A stretch of DNA of 64,000 nt from a virus (Duplodnaviria > Caudoviricetes). The stretch's first letter is position 1, and each line of letters starts with the position of its first letter. The notes below the pieces were generated by a model that was not told where the DNA came from, searched no databases, and worked only from the letters and a program-made list of their open reading frames with translations. A program made the position numbers and the translations under genes. The stretch is from positions 12,618-76,617 of the IMG/VR virus record IMGVR_UViG_2772190730_000001. One strand, 5' to 3'. Shown in pieces: positions 13,712 to 43,533 of the stretch.

Positions 13712-13713
13712 AT

Positions 13714-16801: not shown

Positions 16802-16810
16802 GACCGCCTC

Positions 16811-17599: not shown

Positions 17600-17629
17600 G
17601 CCCCAACCCCCGTTGCGTTGCGCGGCCGA

Positions 17630-18196
17630 CTAGTTCGCGGTGCCCTTGGCCGGAGGACGCCGACGACCAGCAGGCTGCTTGCCCGTGGCGACGGTCTGCC
17701 CGGTGGCCTCGACCGCGGCCTTCCGTTCCTGCGCGGCCTCCTTCACCGCGGCGTCCTCGTCGTCGGCCGACTGCTCGTCGTCGGCCACGGTCGCCCCCAG
17801 GTTCTTCAGCTCCCGCTTGATCTGGGTGATGCGGGACTTCAGCTTCTTGTTGTCGTCGAACTCGGCCCGGCGGGCCAGGCCCTCGTACTCCTCGCGCAGG
17901 GCCCGCACCGTGTCCCGGTCCCGGTCGAGGACCAGCCGGTCGGCCTCCGCGGCCGCGGCGAGCTTGCCCTCCCGCTGGAGGACCTCCAGGTTCGCCTGCG
18001 TCGGCGACGGGATCACGTCCGGGTCGACGTGCGTGAGCCGGGTGCCGGACTCGTCGACCACGACGTCGGCGTTGGCGAGGTCGGGGGGCAGCGGCTTGTT
18101 GTCGCCGTCGAGCAGTTCGTTGGTGGGGTCCACCTCGACGTTCGGGGTGTGGGTGCCCTCGGCCGCGCGGGCCTTGTCCAGTGCGTCATCAGCCAT
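17630..18196 (-). CDS. Hypothetical capsid-adjacent protein
   Basis: 188 aa, charged and coiled-coil-like, directly downstream of the capsid gene. Confidence 0.6.
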   Translation of the reverse strand: MADDALDKARAAEGTHTPNVEVDPTNELLDGDNKPLPPDLANADVVVDESGTRLTHVDPDVIPSPTQANLEVLQREGKLAAAAEADRLVLDRDRDTVRALREEYEGLARRAEFDDNKKLKSRITQIKRELKNLGATVADDEQSADDEDAAVKEAAQERKAAVEATGQTVATGKQPAGRRRPPAKGTAN

Positions 18197-18301
18197 GTCG
18201 GCCGACCTCCCAATGTGTCTGACGGATGCGGGTTCTGGTGGTGCTGGTGCGCGAGCAGCCGACCCGGGGTTGCCCGGGTCGGCTGCTCGCGGGAGGTCGG
18301 A

Positions 18302-19816: not shown

Positions 19817-19987
19817 GGCCGGACTCCTCTCGGCTCGTGATGGTGGGAGTTGGGCTGCCCGCCCGCACGCGCCAGTCACATCCGCCTGGCATGGCGAGAG
19901 CGCAGGACAACCGGCCACATCCGTCCGGCAGAGTCCTTGCAGCAGAACCGGAACCCGTCAGGGCCCCGGTGGTTGAGAGGGGGTGGA

Positions 19988-23845: not shown

Positions 23846-24282
23846 CCGGCACCAAAGATGTGGTCGATGACGTCGGCCTCCGGTCGCGCGTCGGCCATGG
23901 CTGCCTCCATCGCGGCCCGAAGCTCTCGGGACAGTGAGGCGGCTCCAGCCGCCGTGTGGTTGCCCCGCCCCGCTGTCATCATCTGGGCGAGCTCCATCAC
24001 GAGAGCTCCCTCCGGGCAGTCCAGCCGGCCAACCGACTCGAGCTTCTGGCGGTACGAATCCACCAGCGAAGAGGGCGCATACAGCGGTTCGGTGTTTGTC
24101 GTCGTGGACGTGCGTTGAGATTGCCGTTTCGGTGCGGCTTTTGGCTTTGCCTCGTGCAGCTGGATCACCCGGGGGTTGCCCCGATTCCGAGGAGGCCTGC
24201 ACTTCTCGCAGAACTCCCGAGGCCGGGCTCGACCCTGCTGCGGCGGAATCACACCCCCGCACTCCTTGCACCTGCGCTCCAC
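23842..24282 (-). CDS. terS: Terminase small subunit
   Basis: 146 aa directly upstream of terL; AASLSRELRAAM..A...DVID helix pattern. Confidence 0.7.
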   Translation of the reverse strand: MERRCKECGGVIPPQQGRARPREFCEKCRPPRNRGNPRVIQLHEAKPKAAPKRQSQRTSTTTNTEPLYAPSSLVDSYRQKLESVGRLDCPEGALVMELAQMMTAGRGNHTAAGAASLSRELRAAMEAAMADARPEADVIDHIFGAG

Positions 24283-24288
24283 GACGGA

Positions 24289-24876
24289 TCACCCCACAAG
24301 GGCGAGCTGGACGACACCGCCCAGGCCTCGCCGTGAGTTGCAGCGCCGATGAGCCAGCGCCACGTTCGCGTAGGAGTGCTCACCGCCCAGAACGATCGGC
24401 ACCAGGTGATCGAGAGTCGGACCCATCGCGTGACGACCGCTCAGAGTCCGGTCCACCTCGCTGCCGCAAAGGTGGCAGCGCCAGCGGTCCCGATCGAACA
24501 CCACATCGGGCTCCACTAGATCCACGATGACCAACTGCAGCCGGGCACGGCGCGCAGCGCAGCGCGCACGGTCACGAGCCCTGCGGCTGGCGCGAGCCCG
24601 CACCGGGTCACGCTTGGTGGCCTTGAACAATTGGCCGCATCGCACACTGCACGTCTGCGTCGGTCCACCACCACCGGATTTCCGCCGGCGGAAGCGCGCC
24701 CCGCAGATCGGGCAAGTTGCCATACTGCGCTCCCCAGTTGCATAGGCCGCGACCGGCGCCTTGCCCTCGCGGCGACATGGCCGACACGTGGCCAACCCCG
24801 GCGGGAGGGATCCCCGACCCTGGAACAGAAGCGCGCCGCAGCCCCCGGCACATGGGGTATCCGCTCGTCGCGGCAT
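24289..24876 (-). CDS. HNH endonuclease with N-terminal Cys-rich zinc-binding segments
   Basis: RDRWRCHLCG...TLDHLVPIVLGGEHSYANVALAHRRCN. Confidence 0.9.
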   Translation of the reverse strand: MPRRADTPCAGGCGALLFQGRGSLPPGLATCRPCRREGKAPVAAYATGERSMATCPICGARFRRRKSGGGGPTQTCSVRCGQLFKATKRDPVRARASRRARDRARCAARRARLQLVIVDLVEPDVVFDRDRWRCHLCGSEVDRTLSGRHAMGPTLDHLVPIVLGGEHSYANVALAHRRCNSRRGLGGVVQLALVG

Positions 24877-27929: not shown

Positions 27930-28109
27930 CTACGTGCGGGTGAGGTTGCGGTCCCAGAACCCGCCGGGGTGGTGGCGTGGGAGGCGGCCTGCTGTGTGCA
28001 GTCGCTGGATCTCGGCCTCGGCGTCGTCGCGGATCCGCCGGGCCACGATGGGACCGACTATTTGGAACTGTCGGCGTAGCCAGCTCATCACCATCACGCC
28101 TGCATCCAT
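27930..28109 (-). CDS. Small hypothetical protein
   Basis: MDAGVMVMSWLRRQF..., AGAGGA RBS, overlaps the upstream stop. Confidence 0.45.
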   Translation of the reverse strand: MDAGVMVMSWLRRQFQIVGPIVARRIRDDAEAEIQRLHTAGRLPRHHPGGFWDRNLTRT

Positions 28110-28513
28110 TCCTCTTGCCAGCCCGGCCGACCCCGGTAGGGCTGGGCCATGAGGCGCAGCACGTCGTCGATGGCCTCCTCGTAGCCGGACGTGTGGCTTT
28201 CGCACACGGCGGTGTCGCTCCATTTCGCGAGCACGGCCTTTTTGGCAACGATCTCGGCCAGGACCCGGGTGGGCTGCCATGCCGTGATGTGGCGGGCGTC
28301 TGCCTCCGTGACATTGCCGCCATCGCCTGTAAACAGGCAGCTGGTGAGCTGGTGCCCTGGCCGGAGGCTGCTCTCCGCCTCAACCCGCAGCGGCGTCCGC
28401 CACGTCCAAGTGCCCGATGACGCGGCGCGAGCAACCTGCTCGTCAGCGTCCACCTGCGCGCGGAGCCAGCCGAGCAGGGTGACGGGCGGCGCGTCGGCGG
28501 CTCGGTGGATCAT
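28094..28513 (-). CDS. DUF6221-like actinophage protein (leaderless cassette)
   Basis: WLRAQVDADEQVARAA...RHITAWQPTRVLAEIVAKK...LRLMAQPYRGRPGWQEEW; TACTCT-TGAGCGC-ATG upstream. Confidence 0.7.
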   Translation of the reverse strand: MIHRAADAPPVTLLGWLRAQVDADEQVARAASSGTWTWRTPLRVEAESSLRPGHQLTSCLFTGDGGNVTEADARHITAWQPTRVLAEIVAKKAVLAKWSDTAVCESHTSGYEEAIDDVLRLMAQPYRGRPGWQEEWMQA

Positions 28514-30795: not shown

Positions 30796-30969
30796 TCAGG
30801 GTGCCGGGTTGGGCTCCGGCGCTGAGGTGCTTTCCTCGGCGGGTGCAGTGGGCATCCACTGGGAGCACGCCTCGAGGTAGGTGCCGATCTTGGGGCGGTG
30901 GCCCCGGAACTCGGGCCGCCAGTGGCACTCCTCGCACTGCGGGCCGAGGATCTCGTCAGCGTCAGTCAC
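30796..30969 (-). CDS. Small CxxC protein
   Basis: MTDADEILGPQCEECHW...EACSQW. Confidence 0.4.
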   Translation of the reverse strand: MTDADEILGPQCEECHWRPEFRGHRPKIGTYLEACSQWMPTAPAEESTSAPEPNPAP

Positions 30970-30995
30970 CCGAGCATCATCACACCGCAGCCAGG

Positions 30996-31358
30996 TCAGG
31001 CCCGGCGGGGGGCCAGCGCATCCAGGTGCGCCTTCCACCGGTCCCCATCAGGGTTGGCCAGCCAGGTGAGCGAGAGGTACACGCCATCGGCCCAGGGGTC
31101 ACCGCTCTTGCGTGCCTTGCCGGCGGCCATGAACTCCAGCAGGAGGTCGTGGGTCGTTCCCTCGACCTCGAGGTGCCGGGCCGGCGAGAGCTGGACCTGA
31201 CCGTTGGCCCACTCCATCGCTTCGACGGCGCCGCCCATGGCGATCCGCTCGGCCCTTGTGGCTGGCATCGCGAAGTAGGACTGAACGCCGCGCATGAGGT
31301 GCTGCCAGCGGGCGGCAAACTCGGCCTCGCTGCGGTCTACCCCCGGGCGTAGTGCCAT
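30996..31358 (-). CDS. Hypothetical protein
   Basis: 120 aa from ATG 31358, helical composition. Confidence 0.5.
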   Translation of the reverse strand: MALRPGVDRSEAEFAARWQHLMRGVQSYFAMPATRAERIAMGGAVEAMEWANGQVQLSPARHLEVEGTTHDLLLEFMAAGKARKSGDPWADGVYLSLTWLANPDGDRWKAHLDALAPRRA

Positions 31359-31387
31359 GCCACCAGCATCGCACTGCCCACCGACAA

Positions 31388-31430
31388 AGTGCAGGCCCCG
31401 GCCGGCGGATAGCCGAACGGGGCCTGCACT
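31388..31430 (-). terminator. GC-rich hairpin, probable intrinsic terminator
   Basis: Perfect 13-bp stem agtgcaggccccg/cggggcctgcact just past the stop at 31437, followed by a short T run on the minus strand. Confidence 0.55.
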
Positions 31431-31436
31431 CACAGG

Positions 31437-31919
31437 TCAGGGGGTCTGCGTGTGCCCGGTGACGTGGACCGTTTCAGGCTGGTGGTCGTACACCGTGAGG
31501 TCGACCTGCTGCGGGGTGGTCGCGGCGACCACCGCCCGGTCCAGGCGGTCCTCGGCTGTTAGAGCGTCCACGATCGCCTCGGCCACGGCCAGGTCCTCAT
31601 CGTGCCGCTCAGGCCAGTAGTCGTGACCGTCCAGGCCGTCCTCTCCGGGCGCCTCGTACACCGCGGCGCGGTCGTCCGTGGGAAGGCCCACGTTGGCCAA
31701 CTGGTCGATGACGAGTGCGTCTTCCTGGTCGCGTTCCTGGCAGTACTGAGTTTCGGCGGCTTCCTGGGCGCTTTCGACCTGCTCGTAGTAGTAATCATCA
31801 GTGTCGATGTACTCCGGGTGGTCCGGGTGGTATTCGACTCGACCGCCGTGCAGACGCGAATAGTCGCCCATGGGCCCGTCCTGCCAGCCTTCCGGAACCT
31901 CAGGCCGCTGCTCGCTCAT
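31437..31919 (-). CDS. Highly acidic hypothetical protein
   Basis: 160 aa; hand count about 39 D+E, 8 R, no K. Confidence 0.65.
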   Translation of the reverse strand: MSEQRPEVPEGWQDGPMGDYSRLHGGRVEYHPDHPEYIDTDDYYYEQVESAQEAAETQYCQERDQEDALVIDQLANVGLPTDDRAAVYEAPGEDGLDGHDYWPERHDEDLAVAEAIVDALTAEDRLDRAVVAATTPQQVDLTVYDHQPETVHVTGHTQTP

Positions 31920-32260
31920 CGGATCACCACCGCAGCTTCTCGGGCGGCCAGGGCCTGATCGCGCTGCGCCTTGACCTCAGCCACGTGCGCCTCCAGGTCG
32001 GCATCGACCCTGACCTGGCACAGCTGAACCTTGGACAGCACCGGCGGCACTGATCCTGCGTACGGGTTCGGCATGAACCGGTGTGACCAGCGAGCGTTGA
32101 TTTGCTGCTGGATGGAGCACCGCTGCTTAGGGGTGAACCTGCTGGCGTTTGCGGGACGGGTGTCGTTGATCTTCTGGTGCGCGATGTAGCACCCGACGAG
32201 GCCGCAGAAGATCAGGGCCACCAAAGCGGCGGAAAGAATGATGCTTCCGAGCGCGCTCAT
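31916..32260 (-). CDS. Membrane-anchored hypothetical protein
   Basis: N-terminal TM helix; coupled to both neighbours by overlaps. Confidence 0.6.
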   Translation of the reverse strand: MSALGSIILSAALVALIFCGLVGCYIAHQKINDTRPANASRFTPKQRCSIQQQINARWSHRFMPNPYAGSVPPVLSKVQLCQVRVDADLEAHVAEVKAQRDQALAAREAAVVIR

Positions 32261-32880
32261 CGGGACCTCACCCCATCGAGCTGCACGAGCCCTGGGGCCG
32301 GGACGCCCTCGGCCCCCCGGAACGTGACCCACCACTCGGCGACCTCCATGAGGGTCAGCTCCGGTGGGTCGGTCAGCTGGAAGCAGACTGCATGCTCCAG
32401 GGACGTAGCGTCCCGGTGCCGTGTCTCATCGCAGTGCGTCATGGCCTCGGTGATCCCGTCGATGATCGGCCGGCGGGCTTGCACCAGCCATCCGGTCATC
32501 AGCGCTGGCGCCGCCGGGGAGTCGCAGGCGGCCTTCCAGGTTGCCCTCATGGCGCGGAGATCTTCGACGACCCGGGGGTGCAGGGGCCAGCACGGTGAAA
32601 GCTTGGGATGATGGTGAAGCCAGACGGTACCGACCCACTGCCACGTCTCGACGAGGACGTCTGCCGCCTTCTGCGGGTCGGTCATGGTCAGCCACTCCGG
32701 GGTGGCAGCTCCCTCTTCGGATGTGGTGGCCGCGCCTCGTTCCTGCAGCGTCGCGAGGCTGTTCATTGCCTTCGTCAACTGCCGGGTGAGGACCTGCATG
32801 GTCTTTTCGGTTGCGCTCTGCCGGGAAGCGATTCCGTTCACCTGCACGCCGAGCTGGTCGAGTTTCGTCTGCTCACTCAT
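32257..32880 (-). CDS. DUF4913-like protein (typical neighbour of actinobacterial coupling proteins)
   Basis: CWPLHPRVVEDLRAMRATWKAA...MTGW motif; directly downstream of the T4CP. Confidence 0.55.
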   Translation of the reverse strand: MSEQTKLDQLGVQVNGIASRQSATEKTMQVLTRQLTKAMNSLATLQERGAATTSEEGAATPEWLTMTDPQKAADVLVETWQWVGTVWLHHHPKLSPCWPLHPRVVEDLRAMRATWKAACDSPAAPALMTGWLVQARRPIIDGITEAMTHCDETRHRDATSLEHAVCFQLTDPPELTLMEVAEWWVTFRGAEGVPAPGLVQLDGVRSR

Positions 32881-34837
32881 GAGTGCCGACCTCCTCGGCT
32901 TCGAGCTCGGCCTGGTCGTCGTCCTGCCGTGGATCCGGCACCACGACATCCCGCGGCGGTGCCCAGCGCGGCGCGTGGTCGTGGTCGGCGTTGACGCCGT
33001 CGAGACGATGCGAGCGCTCCGACCCATCGCACACCGTGCACAGGGTCGCGGCCCGAACATCAGCCCGCTCGAATGACTTCGGAGTCGTCACCCGAACCGG
33101 CCGCATGCCGTTGACGATCATCAGTGCCTCGTGCGGCTTCATCTGCGAGATCGCAGCCTCGCTCATGGTGGCCACTGGACGGTCGTCGTCCGCGTCGAAC
33201 CGCTTCATCCGGCCACCTGTCAGCGTCGACAGCAGCGACAGGTCTTTCTCGCTCTTCGTGCCTCCGAGAACCGTGAGGACGCCTGCGTTTCCGGCGATGA
33301 CCTCAGCGGCGCCCGCGCCCCAGCCCATGTTCAGCTGAGCCAGGGACTGCAGGGTGATGACGCCCGGGATGCCGGCACCACCGTTGTCGCTGGTCCACTT
33401 CGCCAGGTCCACGCCCGGGCACGTCAGGAACGCCTCGTCCAGGGCCATCAGGAACGGCGGGTCCAGGCGGCCGCCGTCAGCGACCCGGATGGCCTGGAAC
33501 GCCAGCTCTGAGGTGAGCGCGTTCGTCAGCGGTGTGATCCCTGAATGATCCCGAGGGCACACCAGGTAGAGGGTGTCGGTGCCCGACCGGATCAGGTCGG
33601 CGATGTCGAGGAAGCGCGGGTCGTCCAGTGCGGCGTCACCGATCACGGCGGCCCCGGGGGACCGCAGCCACCGCAGTGCCTCGCTCATCGGGGACATGTA
33701 CCCGAACTTCTGCCGGCCATCCTGCTCCAGGGTGTCCTTCACCTTCCGGATCAGGTCGGCGTTGCCGTCGAGGTATTTCTTGATCAGCGCGGTCATCTCG
33801 AACACGGTGGTGCTCGTGTTCTCGCTCTCCACCCACCGGGCGACGTCCCGCAGTCGAAGGCCAGCAGCGGCTGCCACGTGCAGGAAGATCGGGAACCTCT
33901 CGCGGGCCTTCTCCGTCCAGGACGCCGACTCTCCCTGTGTCGAGGAGATCAGCTCACCAGCGCGCCGCTCCGCGGTGACCATGTCGGTGCAGCCCGCCAG
34001 CGGCGACCACCGGACCGTGCTCCTGATCGAGTCCAGGCCCAACGGATTGAAGATGACGATCCGGCCCCTGCTGCGCCGCATCGCTCCGGTGGTCTTCAGC
34101 AGGTCGACGCGCGTCGATGTCACTAGCGCAGACCCGGGGTGGTCGATGATCCGGCACGCGAGCTTGGTCGTCTTCCCCATCTGCGGTCCGCCCGTGCAGA
34201 TTTCCCAGAGCTTCAGCGAGGTGCGCAGGTCCTGGCGCCATGTGTACGGGCCTAGCTTCGCGCCGAGCGTGCCCTGATGCACTGACCAGTCGGTGGCCGG
34301 CAGGTCCCGCAGATTGCGGCCCTCCAGTGACGGGCGGAGCACGGCGGCGTCGGCCTGCAGCGCGGCGTTGTTCTCGCCGACGTCCATCCAGCTGGCCATG
34401 CCGTGGTTGTGATCGCTGTGCTCGTCGGCGCGCAGGATCACTTCGTCCGACGCCAGCGGCCGCACCAGCCGATCCCACAGCCACCATCCGATGACCCCGG
34501 TGGCCGTGCCGTACGCGACGAGCACCGACACGGTTGCGCTACCCAGCAGCAGGCCGGCGACCCAGGCCAGCACCCACACTGACCCACCGATCCGGGCCGG
34601 CCGATCGTGGCCGAAGAACCCCACGACCAGGAGCCCGACGAGTCCGGCCACGGGCCCGGCCAGCGCGGTAACGACCCAGGTCGTCGGTGAACCGATCAGG
34701 ATGCCGAGGCCCACGGCCAGGGTGGTCGAGGCGATGGCGGACCGGAGGGCAACGTCGGGGCGCCACAAAAAGCGAGCCTCGCGGGCCATAGCCCAGGGCG
34801 CGCAGGTACGGTTGAGCACGATGGTCTTCCTCTCCAA
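32873..34837 (-). CDS. VirD4/TraG-TraD-like type IV coupling protein
   Basis: N-terminal TM helices, GGPQMGKT (Walker A), FNPLG, LMALDEA (Walker B), TLQSLAQLNMGWG, AGNAGVLTVLGG. Confidence 0.88.
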   Translation of the reverse strand: MERKTIVLNRTCAPWAMAREARFLWRPDVALRSAIASTTLAVGLGILIGSPTTWVVTALAGPVAGLVGLLVVGFFGHDRPARIGGSVWVLAWVAGLLLGSATVSVLVAYGTATGVIGWWLWDRLVRPLASDEVILRADEHSDHNHGMASWMDVGENNAALQADAAVLRPSLEGRNLRDLPATDWSVHQGTLGAKLGPYTWRQDLRTSLKLWEICTGGPQMGKTTKLACRIIDHPGSALVTSTRVDLLKTTGAMRRSRGRIVIFNPLGLDSIRSTVRWSPLAGCTDMVTAERRAGELISSTQGESASWTEKARERFPIFLHVAAAAGLRLRDVARWVESENTSTTVFEMTALIKKYLDGNADLIRKVKDTLEQDGRQKFGYMSPMSEALRWLRSPGAAVIGDAALDDPRFLDIADLIRSGTDTLYLVCPRDHSGITPLTNALTSELAFQAIRVADGGRLDPPFLMALDEAFLTCPGVDLAKWTSDNGGAGIPGVITLQSLAQLNMGWGAGAAEVIAGNAGVLTVLGGTKSEKDLSLLSTLTGGRMKRFDADDDRPVATMSEAAISQMKPHEALMIVNGMRPVRVTTPKSFERADVRAATLCTVCDGSERSHRLDGVNADHDHAPRWAPPRDVVVPDPRQDDDQAELEAEEVGTHE

Positions 34838-34932
34838 GGGGGTTGCTCATCACTGGCGTGGTGGGGTGTCACGACCCCGCCACGCCGCTTTCGTTTGCGG
34901 CCGGTAGTCACGAGTACCGATCGCGAACGCTC

Positions 34933-35193
34933 TTACTCCCCGGTCTGCGGGGTCTTTCTCTTTCGGCCGGGCGGCCGCGGGCCGATCCCGACCTCGCGGG
35001 CGATTCGCCGAAGGTGCTGAATCGTGTAAACCCCCCGCTCCTCGAGCTGCTCCAGGGGCACACCACCGCGAATGGCGGCTTTCACCGCTTCCCGTTTTCG
35101 TTCGCTGGCGGCCTCGCTCTCTGCCGCAGCCGCCTCGGCTGCTACGACGGCCTCATCCACAGCCTTCATGAGGCGGTCCTGGTCGGTGGTCAC
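34933..35193 (-). CDS. Small putative DNA-binding protein (HTH-like; possible relaxosome accessory or regulator)
   Basis: 86 aa; AIRGGVPLEQLEERGVYTIQHLRRIAREVG; basic C-terminal tail. Confidence 0.55.
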   Translation of the reverse strand: MTTDQDRLMKAVDEAVVAAEAAAAESEAASERKREAVKAAIRGGVPLEQLEERGVYTIQHLRRIAREVGIGPRPPGRKRKTPQTGE

Positions 35194-35229
35194 ACGTCAT
35201 TGTCTCGATCTCCTCCTTCCGGGTGCCGG

Positions 35230-35325
35230 GATCACCGTACACGACAATGCGAACCCGATGTTCGTATTTCCGTGTACAGTCTCCCCCTGTCGGTGCGTGA
35301 CCACCGGCGCACTACACAGCGTCAC
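35230..35325. promoter_or_regulatory. Candidate oriT / divergent control region
   Basis: Intergenic between the divergent T4CP and relaxase operons, with nested inverted repeats. Minus strand CTGTGT^AGTGC resembles the F-type MOBF nic GGTGT^GGTGC. Confidence 0.4.
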
Positions 35326-35340
35326 TTGGAGGACGGGCAC

Positions 35341-36408
35341 ATGACCGACCCGCAGCACCCCCAGGCCACCCCAGACCGAAAGACCCGCACCGCCATCGGC
35401 GTCGCCCTGGCCGGCGTCGGCATCTCAGCCCTCGCCGGTGCCGCCATGGGCTTCGAGCACACCGTCACCGTCGCCCGGGCCTACGGCGCCCCCGCCTACT
35501 GGGACATCGTCACCGCCGCATCCGTCGAGGTCCTGCCCATCACCGGCACGGCCCTGCTCTACGTCTGCCACCGCCTCGGCTGGCCCACCCATTGGCCATA
35601 CCGGGTGATCATGCTCGGCTCGATCTTGACCCTCGGCGCGCAGCTCTCCTGGTACGGCAACGAGGGCCAGGGCAACGCCACGGCAGACCCACAGGTCCTC
35701 GGGTACGCAGTCGCGTCCCTGCCCTCAGCGGTGACGCTCATCCTCGTCGCCATCGGCCACGCCGCCCTCGGGTACGCCAACCAATTCCCGGCGCCCGCGG
35801 CTGACCCGGTACCCGAAGCCGCTGTGCCGCCTACTCCGATCCCCCAACACGAACCGCTTCCTACCCCAGAGCCGGTCCCTACCCCACCCCCTACCCCGGA
35901 GGTGGCGGCCGTGACCCCTACTCCGGTCCCCGTCGCGCCTACCCGCCCTCAAGTCCCTCGGCCGGTGCCAGCTACCCGGGTAGCTGGCACCCCCGACACC
36001 CCGGTGCAGGCCGCGGTGCGGAACTTCCTGGAGGCAGCCCTCGGCGCCGCTGATGCTGACCAGCTCGAGGTCGTGAGGAGCTTGCCGCGCGGCAAGACCG
36101 GGAGGCCCAGCGTCGCCGCGATCCGGGAGGCCCTCAAGGTCGGGCAGACCAAGGCGCAGGAATTGAGGGACGAGGCATTCCCAGCTGGAAGCCAGGACAA
36201 GAAGGACAAGCCAAAGATATTGAAAGTTGAAGGAAACGCGAGAGTAATAGAACGGGATTCTCATGTGGACAAGGAGGGGGAAGGTAAAAGCGAAGGAAAG
36301 AAGAAAGGGGAAGGGACCAATACAACTTCCGTTGATCAAGGTTCGGCCCGGCCTGCGGCCGGTCCGGAGCCGACTGCGCTGCGCGTCGTCGGCGGGGGCC
36401 GTGCGTGA
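35341..36408 (+). CDS. DUF2637/SpdA-like membrane protein with Pro-rich linker
   Basis: Four N-terminal hydrophobic segments (AMGFEHTVTVARAYG, ASLPSAVTL), Pro-Thr linker, HTH-like SVAAIREALKVGQTKAQEL. Confidence 0.65.
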   Translation: MTDPQHPQATPDRKTRTAIGVALAGVGISALAGAAMGFEHTVTVARAYGAPAYWDIVTAASVEVLPITGTALLYVCHRLGWPTHWPYRVIMLGSILTLGAQLSWYGNEGQGNATADPQVLGYAVASLPSAVTLILVAIGHAALGYANQFPAPAADPVPEAAVPPTPIPQHEPLPTPEPVPTPPPTPEVAAVTPTPVPVAPTRPQVPRPVPATRVAGTPDTPVQAAVRNFLEAALGAADADQLEVVRSLPRGKTGRPSVAAIREALKVGQTKAQELRDEAFPAGSQDKKDKPKILKVEGNARVIERDSHVDKEGEGKSEGKKKGEGTNTTSVDQGSARPAAGPEPTALRVVGGGRA

Positions 36409-39400
36409 TCACGATCGCGAAGATTCAGGGCAATGTGGACTACTACATTGCGGGGGAGCGGAGCGACGCCGACCGGGCCGCTGGCTACTACCTGGACGGC
36501 GCCAGCGGGGAGCCCCCGGCGTTCTGGTCGGGCGCCGGCGCGGAAGCCCTCAGCCTGTCCGGGCAGATCGACGAGGCCGAGTTCGCGGCACTCTTCACCA
36601 CCCACGCTGACCCGCGAGACCCGAAGTTCGCCGACCCAGCTACCCGCGGTGAGGCCGCCCTACTCGGTTCGAAGCTCCCTACCTACCGATCCACAGGTGA
36701 CCTACTCGCGGCGAAGCTGGCCGCCTACCCGGGTACCCCTACTCCGGAGGACCAGGCCCGCCTACTCGTCGCCGCGGAGAAGGAGACCCGGCGGGCGCTA
36801 CTCGGGTATGACCTGACGTTCTCGCCGCCGAAGGATTTCACGCTCCTCCTGATGGCGGCCGGGTATGCCGAGCAGGCCGCTCGGGACAGCGGGAACGTCG
36901 AGGAGATGAACCGGTGGGCTGCCCGCCGGACCGACCTGACCCAGGCCGCGCTCGATGCGAACAAGGTGGCCCTGGAGTACGCGGCCGAGCAGGCGGCCTA
37001 CTCGCGGCAGCAGGTGGCCGGCACGCAGTTGATCGTCAAGGGCAAGGGATTCGTGCACGCAAGCTTCGAGCAGCACGACAACCGGGCCGGTGCCCCGTCG
37101 TTCCACGTCCACAATCCGACGCTGAACAAGATCGAGAACGAGGACGGGAAGTGGCGGACGCCGGAGGGCCCGGGGATTGTCGCGGCCCGGCCGGCGGTGT
37201 CGGCGGTGGCCGACCGGGCACTGCGCGAGCGCGTCGAGGAACTGGGTTACTCCACCGTGGCGCGGGCCGAGGCCCGTACGTGGGCAGTCGAAGGGATCAC
37301 CGATGAGGTTCGTGAATCGGTGTCAGAGCGCTCACAGGAGGTGAACGCAAAGACGCAGGAACTGTTGGACTTGTACGCGGAGCGTTACGGGCGGGAGGCC
37401 ACCGCCCGGGAGGCATCGAAGCTTCACCGGGCGGCGAACAAGCAGACCCGGGCAGCGAAGGTGAAGGGCGGGCAGTCCACAGCAGACCTGATCGAGCGGA
37501 CCCACGAGGCGGTCCAGCGGGAGATGGCCGGTGGCCTTGAGGCCCTGGCCGCCCGGCACCGGGACATCAGCCCACCGGCGGTCGGCAGCGAAACGGCGTG
37601 GTCACGGCGAGCCGTGATCGCACAGGCGCTGGACGCCGTGCAGGCAGCGGACGCGACGTGGACACGGTGGGACCTGACGCAGCGCCTCGAGGAACTGCTG
37701 CCGCCGCTGGCCCTGGCGACCGAGGACGTGCCCAAGCTGCTGCATGAGTTGACGACCGAGGCGCTGCATCAGGGGTACGAGCCGATCGCGAAAATCTCAG
37801 GTGGCATCCATGCACCGGATGCCCCCACCCAGCTGCGCCGCGCGGACGGCGCCCTGGTCTATGAGACCCCGACACAGCACCGGTACGCGCTGCGCTCTCA
37901 CCTGGACAAGGAGGCATCTCTCCAAGCTGCTGCTGTGATCCGGGACCGGGCCGCGGTGGAGCCGGAGGCGGCTCGGAAGGCCCTGGCCGCATACGCCGAT
38001 GGCCAGGATCCGGGCTACCGGTTGTCGGTTGATCAGCAGGCGGTCGCGGGGCAGCTGCTGACGGGCGGTGCCCGGCTGGCCACGGTGATCGGCCCGGCCG
38101 GCACGGGGAAGTCCACCACGATCGGTGCGGTCTCGCAGGTGTGGCCGGAGGTGTCCTCCGGCGGCCGGGTCGTGGGCGTCGCGGTGAGCGAGAAAGCTGC
38201 GATGGCGCTGCGGGATGCCGGGGTCCCTCATGTGCTGAACGCGGCACGGTTCGAGGCCACCCAGGTGCGGCTGGCTGAGGGCCGGGACTGGACCGATGAC
38301 GGTCCTTACCGGCTGCAGGCGAACGACAAGCTGGTGATCGACGAGGCCAGCATGATGACCACGCAGCTGTGGGATCGGCTGATGCAGATGGCCGACCGGT
38401 CCGCGACCGCGGTGGTGGCGACGGGTGACCCGTTTCAGATGGGCGCGGTCGGTGCCGGCGGGGTGATGGCCGATATTGCTGCGGATCCCACGGCTGAGGT
38501 CATGACCTTGCGGCAGGTGCACCGGTTCGCTGAGCCGTGGGAGGGCGAGGCCTCGCTGCGGCTGCGGGACGGCGACCAGGACGTCGTCCGGGAGTACGCC
38601 CGCCACGGGCGGCTGTACGCAGCGGGTGACGCGGCAGGGATGCAGCAGCAGGCCGCGGAGATGTACGTGGCTGCGCGGGCCGCCGGGAAGACGGCCGCGG
38701 TCATGGCCGAGACGAACGCGACCGCGAACACGATCTCCGCTCTGATCCGTGACCAGCTGGTGGACCTCGGTCTCGTTGCGGACGGGCCGGTGGTGGAGCT
38801 GGGCCGCGACGGCAACGTTGGCGGGGTCGGGGACGTCATCGCCTGCCGGCACCCGGATCGTGCGCTCGGTCTGGTGAATCGCGAGAAGCTCGAGGTGCTG
38901 GCCCTGGGCGAGGACGGCTCCATGGACGCGGTCACCAAGTCTGGTGCGGTCAAGCACATTCCGGCCGACTACGTGTCCCAGCACGTGAGCCTCGGCTACG
39001 CCGCGACCATTCATGGCGAGCAGGGCGGCACCGTCGACGTCGGCATCACCGCGGTCACGAAAGATTCGTCGCGATCAGCCCTTTACACCGGGGCGACCCG
39101 GGGCCGAGAGCGGAACGTCGTGGTCGCCCAGACGGTGTACCCCGACAAGCTCCGCGGGCAGGAGAAACTTGACGAACGGGTCGAACCAATGCGGCCGGAG
39201 GCCGTGCTGGCGGCCGTCCTTGACGGCGATGGCCCGGAGCAGTCAGCGACGGCCCAGGCAGCCGAGCATGCCGAGCACCGTGCGTCGTGGGGCACGGTGG
39301 GTGGCGAGCACGAGCACGCCATGGAGGTTGCCTGCCGGGAGCGCACCGACCGGGCGCTGGACCGGCTCGCTGCCGATGGCCGGATGACGGAGGCCGATCG

Positions 39401-40637
39401 AGCCCGATTCGCCGCTGATTCCGCTACCGGTCAGCTGTCGCGGATGCTCCGTAGCGCGGAGCAGGCTGGCCACGACTCCGAGAAGGTCCTCGTAGATGCT
39501 CTGGCCGCGGGATCGCTGAAGGGCGCCAAATCGGTCGGCCAGGTGATGTGCGCGCGGGTCGACAAGTTGGGCCTGCCCATGGAGCCGCAGCCGGGGCACG
39601 TCCCGGTGGCGGGCATCGGTGGCGAGTGGGCTGCTCATCTCGTGGCGCAGCACGAGCACGCTGCGGCGCGGGAGGCCGAGCTGGGCGAGCGGGTCGCGGA
39701 GGCCGCACCAGCGTGGGCGGTGACCGCTTTCGGTCCGGTCCCAGAGGAGCCCTCTGCACGAGGCGATTGGGTGGCGGCTGCTGGCCGTACGGAGCGGGCC
39801 CGGGAACGGCTGGGCTGGGAGGACGAGCAGCGGCCGCTCGGTCCGTCGCCGTCGACGCTGCAGCCGGAGGCTCGGGCGGAGTGGTTCGGCGCCTGGAATC
39901 AGCTCGGCCGGCCGGAAGCGGTGGCCGAGGAGGGCGGCATGAGTGAGGGGCGGCTCCGTGCCCGGATTGAGGCGGCCGAGCGGGTCGAGCGGGAGGCCCC
40001 GGCCCACCTGGACCGTCAGGCGGGGGCGACGTGGCAGGCCGCGGATGTGGCCGGCCGAGACGCTGCGCTGGCCGAGGCCCGGGGAGATCAGGCTGCCGCT
40101 GACGCTGCGGCCGAGGACGCTGTGCGGCTCGAGCAGAGGGCTCGGCTGCTGGAGCCTGCGGTGATCGCCCGGGACGAGCACGTCGAGGAGGTTCGGTCGC
40201 TTATGGAGACACGTCGCCGGGCCGAGGAGGAGCTGCTGGCCCGGGGCATCGACCTGGCGGTGGAGGAGAAGGCGACGGCTCAGGAGCACCTGGATGAGTT
40301 GCTCCCGCAGGACCCAGAGGAGGTGCTTGAGACCGACATCGATCTGGTGAGCGAGAAGGACCGGGCCGAGCTGGCTGCGGACCTGGCGGCCGAGATGGCT
40401 GACCTCTCACCCGAGGTGCACATCCCGGCTCAGCTTGAGCGGCCGGAGCCGGTGGGTGAGGTCGTTTCTGCGGAGTTCGCTCTTGAGGCGGCCGAGTTCG
40501 CGGCCACCTGGCAGAGGGATCACGACTACCGGGTGGCGCAGGTAGCGGAGTTCGAGGCGTCGCACGCGCTGGTGCCTGAGTCGCAGGTCCGGCGCCGCGA
40601 TCAAGAGGCCACGGAGGGCATGCAACAGACCCAGTAA
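36405..40637 (+). CDS. mobF: MOBF (TrwC/TraI-like) relaxase-helicase
   Basis: DYY...GYY, GYDLTFSPPK, H..RAGAPSFHVH; RecD-like helicase motifs GPAGTGKS, VIDEASM, GDPFQMGAVGAGG, GYAATIH, TRGRE. Confidence 0.93.
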   Translation: MITIAKIQGNVDYYIAGERSDADRAAGYYLDGASGEPPAFWSGAGAEALSLSGQIDEAEFAALFTTHADPRDPKFADPATRGEAALLGSKLPTYRSTGDLLAAKLAAYPGTPTPEDQARLLVAAEKETRRALLGYDLTFSPPKDFTLLLMAAGYAEQAARDSGNVEEMNRWAARRTDLTQAALDANKVALEYAAEQAAYSRQQVAGTQLIVKGKGFVHASFEQHDNRAGAPSFHVHNPTLNKIENEDGKWRTPEGPGIVAARPAVSAVADRALRERVEELGYSTVARAEARTWAVEGITDEVRESVSERSQEVNAKTQELLDLYAERYGREATAREASKLHRAANKQTRAAKVKGGQSTADLIERTHEAVQREMAGGLEALAARHRDISPPAVGSETAWSRRAVIAQALDAVQAADATWTRWDLTQRLEELLPPLALATEDVPKLLHELTTEALHQGYEPIAKISGGIHAPDAPTQLRRADGALVYETPTQHRYALRSHLDKEASLQAAAVIRDRAAVEPEAARKALAAYADGQDPGYRLSVDQQAVAGQLLTGGARLATVIGPAGTGKSTTIGAVSQVWPEVSSGGRVVGVAVSEKAAMALRDAGVPHVLNAARFEATQVRLAEGRDWTDDGPYRLQANDKLVIDEASMMTTQLWDRLMQMADRSATAVVATGDPFQMGAVGAGGVMADIAADPTAEVMTLRQVHRFAEPWEGEASLRLRDGDQDVVREYARHGRLYAAGDAAGMQQQAAEMYVAARAAGKTAAVMAETNATANTISALIRDQLVDLGLVADGPVVELGRDGNVGGVGDVIACRHPDRALGLVNREKLEVLALGEDGSMDAVTKSGAVKHIPADYVSQHVSLGYAATIHGEQGGTVDVGITAVTKDSSRSALYTGATRGRERNVVVAQTVYPDKLRGQEKLDERVEPMRPEAVLAAVLDGDGPEQSATAQAAEHAEHRASWGTVGGEHEHAMEVACRERTDRALDRLAADGRMTEADRARFAADSATGQLSRMLRSAEQAGHDSEKVLVDALAAGSLKGAKSVGQVMCARVDKLGLPMEPQPGHVPVAGIGGEWAAHLVAQHEHAAAREAELGERVAEAAPAWAVTAFGPVPEEPSARGDWVAAAGRTERARERLGWEDEQRPLGPSPSTLQPEARAEWFGAWNQLGRPEAVAEEGGMSEGRLRARIEAAERVEREAPAHLDRQAGATWQAADVAGRDAALAEARGDQAAADAAAEDAVRLEQRARLLEPAVIARDEHVEEVRSLMETRRRAEEELLARGIDLAVEEKATAQEHLDELLPQDPEEVLETDIDLVSEKDRAELAADLAAEMADLSPEVHIPAQLERPEPVGEVVSAEFALEAAEFAATWQRDHDYRVAQVAEFEASHALVPESQVRRRDQEATEGMQQTQ

Positions 40638-40710
40638 TCCGAGGACGGCACCGGCCAGTTTCTGAGGCCGGACCGGTGCCGCCACCCCGAAAAGAGGCAG
40701 GGGCAGCATA

Positions 40711-41115
40711 GTGACGACTGAACCCATTGAGCCCACACCCGAAGACCATGGACCCGCAGCCGAGTTGCAATGGGTCGCGGCCGACCCGGACCTGTGGTCG
40801 GCGTACAGCGCCGGCCTGGTCCGGGGCCAGGAGATCGGATACGCCGATGGTGCCGCAGCGGCCGAGGTCTACGACATCGCCCTGGAGGACGGCTACCAGC
40901 AGGGCCTTGCGGACGGGCTGAGGTCGGGGACCGCCGAGCGGCGCCTCGACCAGGCGCCCGAGCCGATGTTCCGGGTACCCACGGTGGCCGACCTCGGGGG
41001 TAGCGCTGAGGCCGGTGAAGCACTACGCCGACAGGCGGCCGAGTCCTGGAACATGGAGTACACCCCGACCTCGGACCAGGCCACGAGTCAGGACCGGCAC
41101 GACTTGGCCTCCTGA
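40711..41115 (+). CDS. Hypothetical protein
   Basis: 134 aa, acidic, GxxxGYxDG repeats. Confidence 0.55.
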   Translation: MTTEPIEPTPEDHGPAAELQWVAADPDLWSAYSAGLVRGQEIGYADGAAAAEVYDIALEDGYQQGLADGLRSGTAERRLDQAPEPMFRVPTVADLGGSAEAGEALRRQAAESWNMEYTPTSDQATSQDRHDLAS

Positions 41116-41117
41116 CC

Positions 41118-41159
41118 CTGGGGGCGGTGCCGGTTCACCCGAACCGGTGCCGCCCCCAG
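41118..41159 (+). terminator. Hairpin, probable terminator
   Basis: 19-bp stem with two G-U pairs, immediately after the stop at 41115. Confidence 0.55.
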
Positions 41160-41202
41160 CGCCACCCCGTACCCTGACCACACCGACCAAGGGGGACCGA
41201 CC

Positions 41203-41484
41203 ATGCGACGACTGCTCACCGACGCAGAGATCGAGCGCCTACCCGCAGACGTCCGCGACCATTACCGACACCACGACTACCTCCGGCACATCGACGACGT
41301 CCCGTACTTCCCCGACTTCAAACGCGAATGGTTCGAGGCCCAGCACGCCCGGTCAGTGGCCCGGGTCGTCGAGCACATCCGCAGCCGGGAAGGCGACCAG
41401 GCCGCCGAGGAAGCCGCAGCAGCCGTGAAGGAAGCCCGCGCCGAACGCGACCGCCTCGCCCTCCACCTCGCCCAGGCGTCGTGA
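41203..41484 (+). CDS. Small helical protein (possible antitoxin)
   Basis: 93 aa, AAGGGG RBS, GTGA-coupled to the next gene. Confidence 0.55.
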   Translation: MRRLLTDAEIERLPADVRDHYRHHDYLRHIDDVPYFPDFKREWFEAQHARSVARVVEHIRSREGDQAAEEAAAAVKEARAERDRLALHLAQAS

Positions 41485-41813
41485 CCCGCCACCACACCCG
41501 GCTCACCACGACCTGGCTGACCTCCCTCGCCGAAGAACTCCCCGAGCACCGCACCGCCACCCGCCCGGCCCGCTGGGACTTCGTGGCCCGCGACCTGCCC
41601 CCGATCCTCGAACGTCTCGCCACCAGCTGGGACCACCTGGTCGACTTCATCCCCGGCCGCCCCGAGTACCGGGAGTTCGACGGCACCAGCGACCTTGGCC
41701 TGACGTACCGAATCGAGTGCATGGCCGGCCGGGACGGGATCGTTGAGCCGGTCGGCGTGGAGATCGACGAGGCACCGCCGTGGATGGGCGAGGAACCCTC
41801 GGTCGACGTCTGA
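41481..41813 (+). CDS. Hypothetical protein, possibly RelE/ParE-like
   Basis: 110 aa; DFVARDLPPILERLATSWDHL...IPGRPEYR...VEID. Confidence 0.45.
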   Translation: MTRHHTRLTTTWLTSLAEELPEHRTATRPARWDFVARDLPPILERLATSWDHLVDFIPGRPEYREFDGTSDLGLTYRIECMAGRDGIVEPVGVEIDEAPPWMGEEPSVDV

Positions 41814-41824
41814 CCCGCAAACGA

Positions 41825-41865
41825 ACGAGGACCCCCGCGCCTGCCCGAAGCGCGGGGGTCCTCGT
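41825..41865. terminator. Bidirectional terminator-like hairpin
   Basis: Perfect 16-bp stem acgaggacccccgcgc/gcgcgggggtcctcgt between convergent genes. Confidence 0.7.
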
Positions 41866-41880
41866 CGTTCATGGGGCGGG

Positions 41881-42138
41881 TCAGGCCCGGCGGCGGATGC
41901 TCCCGGTCGCCTGGCCTCGCCATGGCTTGTGGATCCATTCGCCCCAGCGCAGGACGTAGGGCGCCCAGCCGTCGGCTCTCAGGTCCACGATCAGCGGGGT
42001 GTCCCGGGGCAGGACCTCCACCTGGCGCTCGCCCGGTGTGGGCTCGGTTACGCGGACGAAGACGACGCCGGCCGAGCTGGGTACGGCGTCAACGGTCAGG
42101 CCGTCGGCGGGTCCTCGGACCAGCTGTAGCTGTGGCAT
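41881..42138 (-). CDS. Hypothetical protein
   Basis: 85 aa, GGAT-preceded ATG, converges on the hairpin. Confidence 0.45.
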   Translation of the reverse strand: MPQLQLVRGPADGLTVDAVPSSAGVVFVRVTEPTPGERQVEVLPRDTPLIVDLRADGWAPYVLRWGEWIHKPWRGQATGSIRRRA

Positions 42139-42205
42139 CCATGCCCCCAGAGGTGGTGGGTGCACCTCGGCCTGGCGGTCTTAGATCCAGGGCGCCAGGT
42201 CCGAG

Positions 42206-42279
42206 GTGACTGACAGATCAGTGACCCGCCGCAGACGGGTGTAACCGATCTGGTGACATCCTGCACCTGATCCGGTGAC
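42206..42279 (+). repeat. Phased GATC-N1-2-GTGAC direct repeats
   Basis: GTGAC at 42206, 42221, 42253 and 42275; the last three are preceded by GATC. Confidence 0.5.
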
Positions 42280-42331
42280 TGGTGCTACCCAATCGGCGCA
42301 CTTGGCCACCAATTCAGGTCACCTGGTCACC

Positions 42332-42586
42332 GTGACCAGTACTTTCGACGCCTCCTTACTGCGGGCCATCAAGGCCGAGCGGGCTCGCCTGGGCATCAGC
42401 CAGGCCGAGCTGGGGGAGCGCCTGGGCGGCTGGCACCGGCAGACCGTGTGGAAGCTGGAGAACGGGCAGCGGGCGCTGCTGGCCCGGGAGCTCCCGGAGC
42501 TGTGCCAGGCGCTGGAGCTGACGGTTGCTCAGTTGTTCGCGCGGGCGTCGAAACGGGACGCGGAGATGCTGGGCCTGAACCGGTAG
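42332..42586 (+). CDS. XRE-family HTH regulator
   Basis: AIKAERARLGISQAELGERL...TVWKLENGQR. Confidence 0.88.
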   Translation: MTSTFDASLLRAIKAERARLGISQAELGERLGGWHRQTVWKLENGQRALLARELPELCQALELTVAQLFARASKRDAEMLGLNR

Positions 42587-42588
42587 AG

Positions 42589-42849
42589 CTACGGAGTCTC
42601 GGGCAGGCCGAGGGTCCGGCGGACCCTCGGGTCGGCGTCGCGCAGGAGCTGGTTGAGGGTGACGCCCAGGGCCTGGCAGACGGTCGCGAGTTCGCGGGTG
42701 GTGAGTTCGCGTTTGCCGTGTTCGATGTCGGACAGGACTGGCCGGCTGATGGCGAGCAGGGCTGCGAGTTCGGCTTGTTTCATGCCGGCGCCGTTCCGTT
42801 CGGCGCGGATGGCTGCGCCGAGGGTGCGGGTGAGGGCGTCGGGTGTCAC
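42589..42849 (-). CDS. XRE-family HTH regulator (paralogue of 42332..42586)
   Basis: AIRAERNGAGMKQAELAALL...LSDIEHGKR. Confidence 0.88.
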   Translation of the reverse strand: MTPDALTRTLGAAIRAERNGAGMKQAELAALLAISRPVLSDIEHGKRELTTRELATVCQALGVTLNQLLRDADPRVRRTLGLPETP

Positions 42850-43233
42850 GCGTCCAGTACGGACTGGCGGCGTTGGTGTTGGCCGGTGGGTGCGACATGG
42901 GGTCGCTGTTGCGGTGAGCGGGGTCGGGAATTCCGACATCCGGTCTGGCCGGTTTCCGTCCGCCTCGTGGCTGCTGGGACACCAGATGTATCTGGACGGC
43001 TGACCGAAACGTAGGACGTCCGGCCAATTTACCGCCGACTCCTCTACTGGCCGGTCGCTTCCATCGGAGGATGCAAGGCACCCGGTGATTCGCCCAGACA
43101 ACCATCGCCGATCCCACCGGGGGACGCAGCAGGCTCGTGGGGATGCGGGCACCAGTGGAGCACGGCAGGCGCAGGCGGGCACGGCGCGGGAGCGATCCAA
43201 ACCGAGCGGTCGACCGACCCAGGGGAGCAGCAC

Positions 43234-43533
43234 GTGACGATTCCGCGACCGAGGCCAGGGCACCACGATCAGTGCGACGGATCCGATGACGCCCTCGACG
43301 AGGGTGCCCCGTGCATGTGGGGGGCCGTCGAGTCCGGCGACGTCACCCTCTTCAACCGGCGCATCCAGGGCCAGGACACCATCCAGGTGGTTCTGCTCCC
43401 GCCGCGGGCAACGCTGGCCCTGGACGAACCTGAGGGCGTCGACCTAATCGTGCGTGCGGTACAGCGGGCCCTGGCGGCCGGCTGGTCGCTGGCTCCGGTG
43501 ATGGCTGCGCTCGGACCGCACCTCCGCCACTAG
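43234..43533 (+). CDS. Hypothetical protein
   Basis: 99 aa, GGGGAG RBS. Confidence 0.45.
   Translation: MTIPRPRPGHHDQCDGSDDALDEGAPCMWGAVESGDVTLFNRRIQGQDTIQVVLLPPRATLALDEPEGVDLIVRAVQRALAAGWSLAPVMAALGPHLRH

Follow-up and report, generated by a model that had tools for sequence, protein, structure and literature searches.

Gene flow through phages and gene flow through conjugative elements are regarded as distinct routes. Here we describe a prophage of an actinobacterium of the family Kineosporiaceae that carries, among its own genes, a relaxase and a type IV coupling protein (T4CP), studied from a 64,000-nucleotide stretch of IMG/VR virus record IMGVR_UViG_2772190730_000001 (positions 12,618 to 76,617; hereafter the window). 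Judging from sequence, we can show what this transfer module is, that it is intact, and that it lies inside one phage-type mobile element. As to its function, we think it probable, though by no means assured, that the element is a mobilisable prophage, i.e. a temperate phage with an intact DNA transfer and replication (Dtr) module that uses a helper channel in trans.

Several described systems come close to this arrangement. Integrative and mobilisable elements (IMEs) and mobilisable plasmids with a relaxase and a T4CP (PMC5704250, PMC11389934) likewise have no VirB4 or channel genes and a candidate origin of transfer (oriT). As in an IME, the present element combines its own integrase at a tRNA gene, att sites and a relaxase without a mating pore, and a helper channel is presumed. 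It differs, however, in being a full 72-kb temperate tailed phage, of which the only integrase is that of the phage, and in carrying virion genes (terL, portal, capsid, tail tube, tape measure, fibre and lysin). Actinobacterial integrative and conjugative elements (ICEs) of the type IV secretion system (T4SS) type consist of an integrase, a TrwC-like relaxase, a VirD4-like T4CP and VirB4 (Ghinet 2011, PMC3218068; Bordeleau 2012, PMC3429521). With these the element shares the actinobacterial-type MOBF relaxase, the VirD4-like T4CP and integration at a tRNA gene, but it lacks VirB4 and mating-pore genes, and has virion genes. For phage-ICE tandems (Huang et al., Sci Adv 2026, PMC13651849) and the conjugative prophage Phi1207.3 (PMC4260502), a prophage has likewise been proposed or shown to conjugate, with the phage integrase performing excision. 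The tandems are two side-by-side accreted elements that use full ICE machinery, and their authors do not consider them hybrids (PMC13651849), whereas the window element has a single att pair and a single integrase, with the Dtr genes internal. Phage-plasmids of the P1, N15 and SSU5 types (PMC12282955, PMC10879196) also combine phage and plasmid-type functions. In contrast to these extrachromosomal elements, ours is integrated at tRNA-Lys in a 1.1-Mb chromosomal contig, and its plasmid-type part is one of transfer rather than maintenance (partition genes were not searched for).

The module is located between the phage early genes and the terminase, and its core is formed by two divergent operons (coordinates are those of the window):

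32257-32880, minus strand: helical partner protein of the T4CP, 207 aa, DUF4913-like, overlapping the stop of the T4CP gene by 8 nt
32873-34837, minus strand: VirD4/TrwB-type T4CP, 654 aa as the longest open reading frame (ORF), recognised by Pfam, motifs and transmembrane segments
34933-35193, minus strand: protein of 86 aa, first gene of the T4CP operon
35194-35340, no strand: divergent intergenic region of 147 bp between the two transfer operons, candidate oriT
35341-36408, plus strand: membrane protein of 355 aa, its stop overlapping the relaxase start
36405-40637, plus strand: MOBF (TrwC/TraI-type) relaxase fused to a RecD-like helicase, 1,410 aa (Pfam TrwC and AAA_30)

A first-pass annotation of the window had already described a T4CP and a 1,410-aa MOBF relaxase in divergent operons with phage genes on both sides, and both the Pfam matches and the flanking phage genes confirm this. 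Residues 13-368 of the relaxase match the TrwC family (PF08751, E 5e-47), while the helicase part matches AAA_30 (E 6e-41) and carries a Walker A motif, GPAGTGKS, at 563, as well as the invariant residues D646 and E647. The protein belongs to the same relaxase fold family as TrwC of plasmid R388 (PDB 1omh), although the two are very distant in sequence (E 9e-12): the catalytic tyrosines Y28/Y29 align with Y18/Y19 of TrwC, and H224/H234/H236 with H150/H161/H163, the HUH-type His triad. Alignments of 16 and of 6 sequences show no variation at Y28, Y29, H234 and H236, and one of 3 sequences none at H224. A relative with 61% identity (P0003) is present on a 5-kb Logan contig. When compared with 50,697 GenBank phage records, the relaxase returned only fragments covering 8-12% of its length; among plasmids, 2,234 records match. 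PHROGs contains no family for the relaxase domain or for the T4CP. Within the 9-Mb host genome the only TrwC match is the window relaxase itself, and, apart from the XRE-family regulators, the module genes are without paralogues in the rest of that genome.

The T4CP matches TraG-D_C (E 2e-10; 41 bits, cut-off 22), T4SS-DNA_transf (21.2 bits, cut-off 20.1) and TrwB_AAD_bind (21.4 bits, cut-off 20.5), and its domain families thereby agree with those of R388 TrwB. It has three N-terminal hydrophobic segments between residues 29 and 101, a Walker A motif (GGPQMGKT) and a Walker B motif (LDE), and residues P218, G221, K222, T223, D467 and E468 are invariant in alignment A2. A search of PDB sequences gave no significant match for it, and a counterpart of the R388 accessory protein TrwA was not identified. 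Homologues of the partner protein follow the T4CP in contigs G049, G050, G051 and G052, on a circular element (L010) and in ~35 genome loci, and every related module has this protein as the conserved companion of its T4CP. This family of ~220-aa proteins has a 50-residue N-terminal helix, and W63, W82, C97, W98, H101, C150 and H155 are invariant among the window protein and 26 homologues (alignment A6), which gives a possible C-x3-H ... C-x4-H metal site. The AlphaFold2 model of the partner is all-helical (pLDDT 81.6), without a Foldseek match in the PDB at E <= 0.001.

The first-pass annotation needed correction at several points. Its 521-aa ORF, starting at 34843, in fact starts at the ATG at 35341, behind a GGAGGA ribosome-binding site, and encodes 355 aa; and its divergent gap of ~500 bp is only 147 bp wide, since the overlooked 86-aa gene, which has a coding GC pattern (0.78/0.51/0.77) and a GGAGGAG 12 nt upstream of its GTG, heads the T4CP operon. 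The 355-aa protein consists of an N-terminal DUF2637-like multi-transmembrane region, a Pro-rich linker and a charged tail. The labels DUF4913 and DUF2637 that were given to the partner and to this protein are weakly supported: the former reaches Pfam E 0.06, below cut-off, with an Atlas score of 0.92, and the latter has no Pfam match, the leads being Atlas clusters (score 0.88, TM 0.63-0.67) and a weak BLASTP match (E 0.009) to the annotated DUF2637 protein of plasmid pPaSha3. Within the 147-bp gap, an inverted repeat at 35234-35254/35260-35280, with 21-nt arms that are 81% complementary and a 5-nt loop, is a candidate oriT hairpin. Two contigs with related relaxases, L008 and L166, end at or before the relaxase start.

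The window corresponds to G000:C6:456581-520580, in the middle of a 1,106,288-bp contig of a 9.0-Mb genome with 70% GC. Two exact 48-bp direct repeats (att), which form the 3' part of tRNA-Lys(TTT), are present at window positions -7727..-7680 and 64142..64189, so that attL lies 7.7 kb left of the first base of the window, the prophage extends past the window on both sides, and the element between the repeats measures 71.9 kb. A congener (G038) has an unoccupied att site, its left flank ending at the tRNA ~350 bp before the right flank begins, and all 71.9 kb thus represent a single insertion. The following phage genes were assigned by the searches:

3082-5859, minus strand: tape measure protein (phrog_305, E 7.5e-45)
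18302-19918, minus strand: major capsid protein (phrog_2263 major head protein, E 8e-42)
21022-22320, minus strand: portal (Pfam Phage_portal, E 1.5e-46)
22355-24292, minus strand: large terminase terL (tblastn to annotated terL of Mycobacterium and Gordonia phages, E 1e-59)
28094-28513, minus strand: DUF6221/phrog_6326 protein (Pfam DUF6221, E 7e-25; phrog_6326, E 2e-20)
53765-54724, minus strand: replication initiation protein (phrog_3926, E 8e-15; phrog_2447, E 3e-13), adjoined by an AAA ATPase
62360-64000, plus strand: tyrosine integrase with arm-binding domain, at the right end of the element (Pfam Phage_integrase, Arm-DNA-bind_4 and Phage_int_SAM_3)

In addition, we identified genes for a tail tube, an antirepressor, an exonuclease, a methyltransferase, an HNH/terS-like protein, a beta-helix fibre and a peptidoglycan-binding-domain protein, and a lysin is counted among the functions of the element. 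Almost all phage functions are encoded on the minus strand. The module is flanked by terL, portal, the HNH/terS-like gene and the phrog_6326 gene on the left, and by the replication initiator, exonuclease, methyltransferase and antirepressor on the right; DUF6221/phrog_6326 homologues also adjoin the relaxase module in G049, G051 and G052. As such, packaging, head, tail, lysis, replication and integration modules are all found inside one att-bounded unit, as in a temperate phage of the siphovirus type, and the earlier description of a largely complete prophage is borne out by the att repeats, by these genes and by the single integrase. The same is true, now for the whole element, of the reported absence of VirB4, of an FtsK-type translocase and of a second integrase: VirB4/AAA_10, FtsK/SpoIIIE and a second TrwC were all missing inside the element, and a whole-genome scan found no second integrase within it. 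Logan contigs from two runs of one sample, possibly the source, span 30796-34302 without alternative joints. The assembly is therefore not visibly chimeric, although contigs from the same sample do not constitute independent evidence.

Some features of the prophage ends stand apart from this. The 19-bp sequence TGGTCACCGACTGGTCACA is present just inside both ends, at L001:12394-12412 near attL and at 64002-64020 near attR, and may be an arm-type integrase binding site. To the right of the integrase, outside the element, lies an MFS transporter gene, and ~10 kb right of the window, at G000:C6:530520-530702 and likewise outside the prophage, a further match to Phage_integrase contains an in-frame TAA stop and appears to be the remnant of an integrase.

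Is the module an isolated case, or do other phages carry it? Close-relative scans of IMG/VR with a single relaxase or a single T4CP as the query gave no matches, and alignments had to be used as queries instead; with these the module turned up inside phage genomes, among them a lineage made up of contigs G049, G051, G052 and L168. In all, full-length relatives of the relaxase are present in at least 8 IMG/VR actinophage contigs. G049 (72,180 bp, CheckV 93%) starts with terS/terL, an SPP1-type portal and a P22-type coat protein, followed by a 1,209-aa ORF in the tape-measure position, tail genes, the module on one strand, a serine integrase, and early genes with a primase-polymerase (prim-pol). 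Its internal genes include the T4CP, the partner protein and the relaxase, and since the genes at its right end match those just upstream of terS in G051, G049 represents a whole phage unit with the module inside. G051 (55 kb, CheckV 100%) has head, tail and module in common with G049, while G052 (69 kb) shares the tail, the lysis region and the module with this lineage but not the head genes; L168 is its fourth member. Across these four contigs the block is collinear at 66-84% DNA identity, and for the relaxases of G049 and G052, the least saturated pair, dN/dS is 0.13, which indicates that in this lineage the relaxase is under purifying selection.

Beyond this lineage, L169, L172 and L173 encode relaxases that are 51-53% identical to that of G051, with a few neighbours resembling those of G049, G051 or G052; of these, L173 was called as a provirus in the genome of an isolate and encodes the T4CP and the partner as well. 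Among five further records the SPP1-portal family turned up in only one, a result of little weight, as three of the four viral records involved are 56-64% complete. L171 has the divergent layout of the window and lies beside tail-type genes, namely an 832-aa ORF placed where a tape measure gene would be expected, and a homologue of the gene that adjoins the tail tube gene in the window. Closest to the window relaxase among viral contigs is that of L166 (60% over residues 410-1404); 3-7 kb away from it are genes for a tape measure and a minor tail protein, both with matches in Gordonia and Streptomyces phages; the neighbour genes of L166, L171 and L008 were typed by BLAST alone. In a tree of 65 relaxases, a quick FastTree reconstruction in which long branches are flagged, the window and L166 relaxases, joined next by that of L008, form a fully supported clade. 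A second clade (support 98) unites seven viral contigs with one chromosomal locus of Pseudonocardia zijingensis (L075), and its sister group consists of non-viral Pseudonocardia loci. On this tree, a minimum of 6 changes is required for the viral label, a number that none of 500 shuffles equalled or undercut, and the label is therefore clustered. Taken together, recurrence, phage-linked clades and selection argue that phages keep the module because it is functional. Where the first-pass annotation had proposed a hybrid between phage and conjugation, the anatomical part of that proposal, with a relaxase, a T4CP and a candidate oriT in an att-bounded prophage with a single integrase, stands as described; the idea that the module is useful to phages is strengthened by the same three lines of evidence, and the host has a candidate helper channel.

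A function within phages need not, of course, be one of transfer. The module could instead serve phage DNA metabolism, as in rolling-circle initiation or processing, or lysogen exclusion or defence against incoming conjugative DNA or phages. PHROGs does match the helicase part of the relaxase, and that part only (Dda-like helicase, exonuclease V). Furthermore, the module lies beside the integrase in the G049 lineage and beside tail genes in L166 and L171, and actinophages often place defence genes expressed in lysogeny near the integration cassette. However, among the genes of the window phage are those for a conventional replication initiator, a loader-like ATPase and an exonuclease for recombination, and this phage hence needs no relaxase for replication, while G049 has a prim-pol. 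The T4CP has moreover retained its membrane anchor and TraG-D_C domain, and plasmids carry this very set, annotated there as conjugative-transfer genes. We therefore hold a role outside transfer to be very unlikely.

The core of the module is also widespread outside phages. We found the trio of T4CP, ~220-aa partner and MobF at ~35 genome loci, in Pseudonocardia, Amycolatopsis, Kribbella, Actinopolymorpha, Streptosporangiaceae and Kineosporiaceae, and the module is a member of this widespread actinobacterial T4CP/DUF4913-like/MobF family. A scan of genome contigs with an alignment of the window, P0003 and P0004 relaxases gave no matches. The trio is present on the 26-kb plasmid pPaSha3 of Pseudonocardia alni (NZ_CP052774.1), with a DUF2637 gene and without VirB4, in a region annotated with conjugative-transfer genes. 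Smaller still is a 13,406-bp circle with a 55-bp end overlap (L010, and likewise L009) from two metagenome assemblies in the European Nucleotide Archive, which encodes only the MOBF relaxase, the T4CP, the DUF4913-like partner and small genes, and so is a minimal autonomous form of the module. These replicons have the same gene set as the window and the same order from T4CP to partner, the relaxase being 37% and the T4CP 29% identical to those of the circle. They differ from it in being small autonomous replicons, whereas in the window the set lies within a phage and is divided between two divergent operons.

If neither the element nor these small replicons encode a mating pore, where would the channel come from? 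The 9-Mb host genome has one AAA_10 (VirB4-like) match, on contig C1. It belongs to a cluster at G000:C1:908448-916107 (L006) that encodes a 992-aa VirB4-like AAA_10 ATPase, a 759-aa polytopic (VirB6-like) membrane protein, two small membrane proteins, a small protein with two transmembrane segments and a secreted NlpC/P60 hydrolase, and that reads like a monoderm-type mating-pore cluster. The VirB4-like protein has no homologue in the prophage, and neither a T4CP nor a TrwC relaxase was found on contig C1. The presence of such a cluster in the host makes a helper channel plausible. Four other actinomycete genomes with the T4CP/MobF module contain one strong AAA_10 match each; in the complete Kribbella chromosome, the only such match is ~540 kb away from the module. 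On another contig of the host (C27; 90 kb, of lower GC), a 1,018-aa T4CP unrelated to that of the window adjoins a Replic_Relax protein at 16057-20258 (L007), and this contig may be a plasmid or an ICE that the host also carries.

The distance between module and VirB4-like gene can also be read differently. In mycelial actinomycetes TraB alone transfers double-stranded DNA, and by analogy the relaxase, T4CP, DUF2637 and DUF4913 proteins could move single-stranded DNA between mycelial cells in contact without a VirB4 channel, which would make the element a truly conjugative phage. Both the 13.4-kb circle and the 26-kb plasmid do without VirB4, as noted. Moreover, searches with the host VirB4-like protein gave no homologue within 10 kb of the T4CP at 48 genome loci; with the 759-aa and NlpC/P60 proteins as queries nothing was found near the T4CP at these loci either, nor with any of the three queries in the viral contigs, and the position of the Kribbella gene fits the same picture. 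The two membrane and partner proteins are always co-inherited with the T4CP, and the named hosts are all actinomycetes of groups generally described as mycelial. On the other hand, the absence tests rest on one divergent query or one Pfam model, 4 of 5 genomes tested carry a VirB4-like gene able to act in trans, and relaxase-dependent transfer without a VirB4 ATPase has no known precedent (PMC3429521). Self-sufficiency thus strikes us as improbable. The wider form of the idea, in which phages of mycelial actinomycetes have repeatedly domesticated the relaxase/T4CP/DUF2637/DUF4913 set for channel-independent transfer of single-stranded DNA of the excised prophage between hyphae, we would likewise give only a small chance.

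With a mobilisable prophage, the steps would be as follows, going by the known roles of these protein families. The phage integrase would excise a 71.9-kb circle, and the relaxase would nick oriT within the gap at 35194-35340 and stay attached to the 5' end. The membrane-anchored T4CP would then pass the complex of relaxase and single-stranded DNA to a mating channel encoded elsewhere, for which the C1 cluster of the host is the candidate. In the recipient, the strand would be recircularised, and the phage integrase would subsequently insert it. Besides its virions, the phage would thus have a way of spreading that depends on cell contact and not on a receptor.

Several observations nevertheless weigh against such a mobilisable prophage, and part of them suit another account, in which an ~11-kb mobilisable plasmid or IME recombined into one phage as passive cargo and is now stranded there without a transfer route, in a genome perhaps too big to package. 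To begin with the relaxase, the second Tyr pair of R388 TrwC has no counterpart in the window protein: the region of Y26 falls in an alignment gap, and so only one Tyr pair is evident. The link between the C1 cluster and the prophage consists of their co-occurrence in one genome, and the T4CP and relaxase on C27 may be the cluster's own partners. The IMG/VR contigs, for their part, are machine-classified. Furthermore, none of 27 IMG/VR records with the portal type of the window (50-59% identity) has a related T4CP, and the 8 of these that have terminal repeats measure 32.6-61.4 kb, all below 71.9 kb, so that the prophage genome may exceed the capacity of its capsid. The plus-strand block at 35.3-42.6 kb, finally, is inverted relative to all phage genes and has a slightly lower GC at third codon positions (0.834 against 0.879), both of which are compatible with foreign insertion.

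The same core on the 13,406-bp circle and on pPaSha3 fits the cargo account as well, and a 15-bp direct repeat, GGTCAGGCCCGGCGG, at 30994-31008 and 41879-41893, at the stop codons of two minus-strand ORFs, encloses 10.9 kb with the T4CP, the relaxase and their small neighbours. These copies may be the junctions of an inserted plasmid or IME, though by our own estimate ~0.2 such matches are expected by chance and the repeat is barely above that. Among phages with the portal type of the window, G079 (portal 52%) has a distant MOBF-like gene and no related T4CP, and the related Kineosporiaceae prophage of G007:C43 (L004/L005; portal 54%) has no module between prim-pol and terL. With head-gene relatives lacking the T4CP, the module is a lineage-specific gain in the window phage. 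The concern in the first-pass annotation that it might be absent from all relatives therefore holds for the head-gene relatives, and does not hold for phages in general. As an account of origin, recombination of a fragment from a plasmid or IME with the phage, which that annotation had offered as its alternative, is probably right. However, for cargo without function one would have to explain why all module ORFs are intact with their catalytic residues conserved, why the nearest viral-contig relaxase, that of L166, also lies beside phage tail genes, and why other phage lineages carry a collinear module with a relaxase dN/dS of 0.13. The GC content of the module (0.690) equals that of the phage flanks (0.703 and 0.692), in agreement with the earlier description. 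We consider stranded cargo unlikely, then, and continue to favour a mobilisable prophage.

One candidate for a second case in the same family was rejected. In G007:C43 an Xis-like helix-turn-helix (HTH) gene and a T4CP gene start ~7 kb beyond the integrase; since this T4CP lies that far past the integrase, behind a peptide-deformylase-domain gene, we take it for part of a separate neighbouring element and not of the prophage. That a prophage and a transfer element are neighbours there does make a route to fusion possible.

Around its core, the module includes a number of small genes:

31437-31919, minus strand: very acidic protein of 160 aa, pI 4.1
31916-32260, minus strand: single-pass membrane protein of 114 aa (by hydropathy; start set at an internal Met)
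40711-41115, plus strand: very acidic protein of 134 aa, pI 4.1, downstream of the relaxase
41203-41484, plus strand: protein of 93 aa, downstream of the relaxase
42275-42586, plus strand: HTH regulator of the XRE family, closing the plus-strand block (Pfam HTH_3, E 4e-9; PHROG transcriptional repressor families)
42589-42849, minus strand: second XRE-family HTH regulator, convergent with the first, at the right edge of the module (HTH_3, E 4e-11)

For the second regulator, HTH_3 covers residues 153-206 of a long ORF at 42589-43266, and the start at 42849 is that of the first-pass annotation. The 160-aa protein has no significant match in Pfam, PHROGs or PDB sequences, and the 86-aa protein, a possible relaxosome accessory or regulator, has none in these three either; for the 114-, 134- and 93-aa proteins Pfam and PHROGs gave no family. 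Seven of the eight CCTACTC heptamers in the window lie at 35830-37003, all on the plus strand and in three reading frames, where 3.4 are expected by chance for the whole 64-kb window. They cover the end of the DUF2637-like gene and the start of the relaxase, with five CCTACCC copies alongside, and are possibly a protein-binding array; no equivalent repeat was found in relatives. Within the structural block of the phage, the stretch at 10100-16400 has a lower GC (0.654) and encodes a GDSL/CE2-type esterase (12569-13711), a 709-aa ORF (13714-15843), a tail-fibre-like protein of 260 aa (15585-16367) and a single plus-strand ORF of 495 aa (11122-12609) without a family match. These are possibly virion-associated enzymes or morons.

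With at least two phage-linked relaxase clades, and one lineage in which the module is collinear and under purifying selection, the module is not a one-off insertion and such phages form a testable class. Cultured material would be at hand in the host of provirus L173, an isolate genome, and in the source strain, if this is in culture. The result also matters for the way in which predictors of prophages and ICEs class regions of this type. Spread by cell contact besides infection has, to our knowledge, been shown for no phage. The gene content described here suggests that phages of this kind may spread in both ways. If so, a phage would escape its receptor-limited host range and reach phage-resistant cells by contact, and while integrated it could mobilise the flanking chromosome in an Hfr-like manner.

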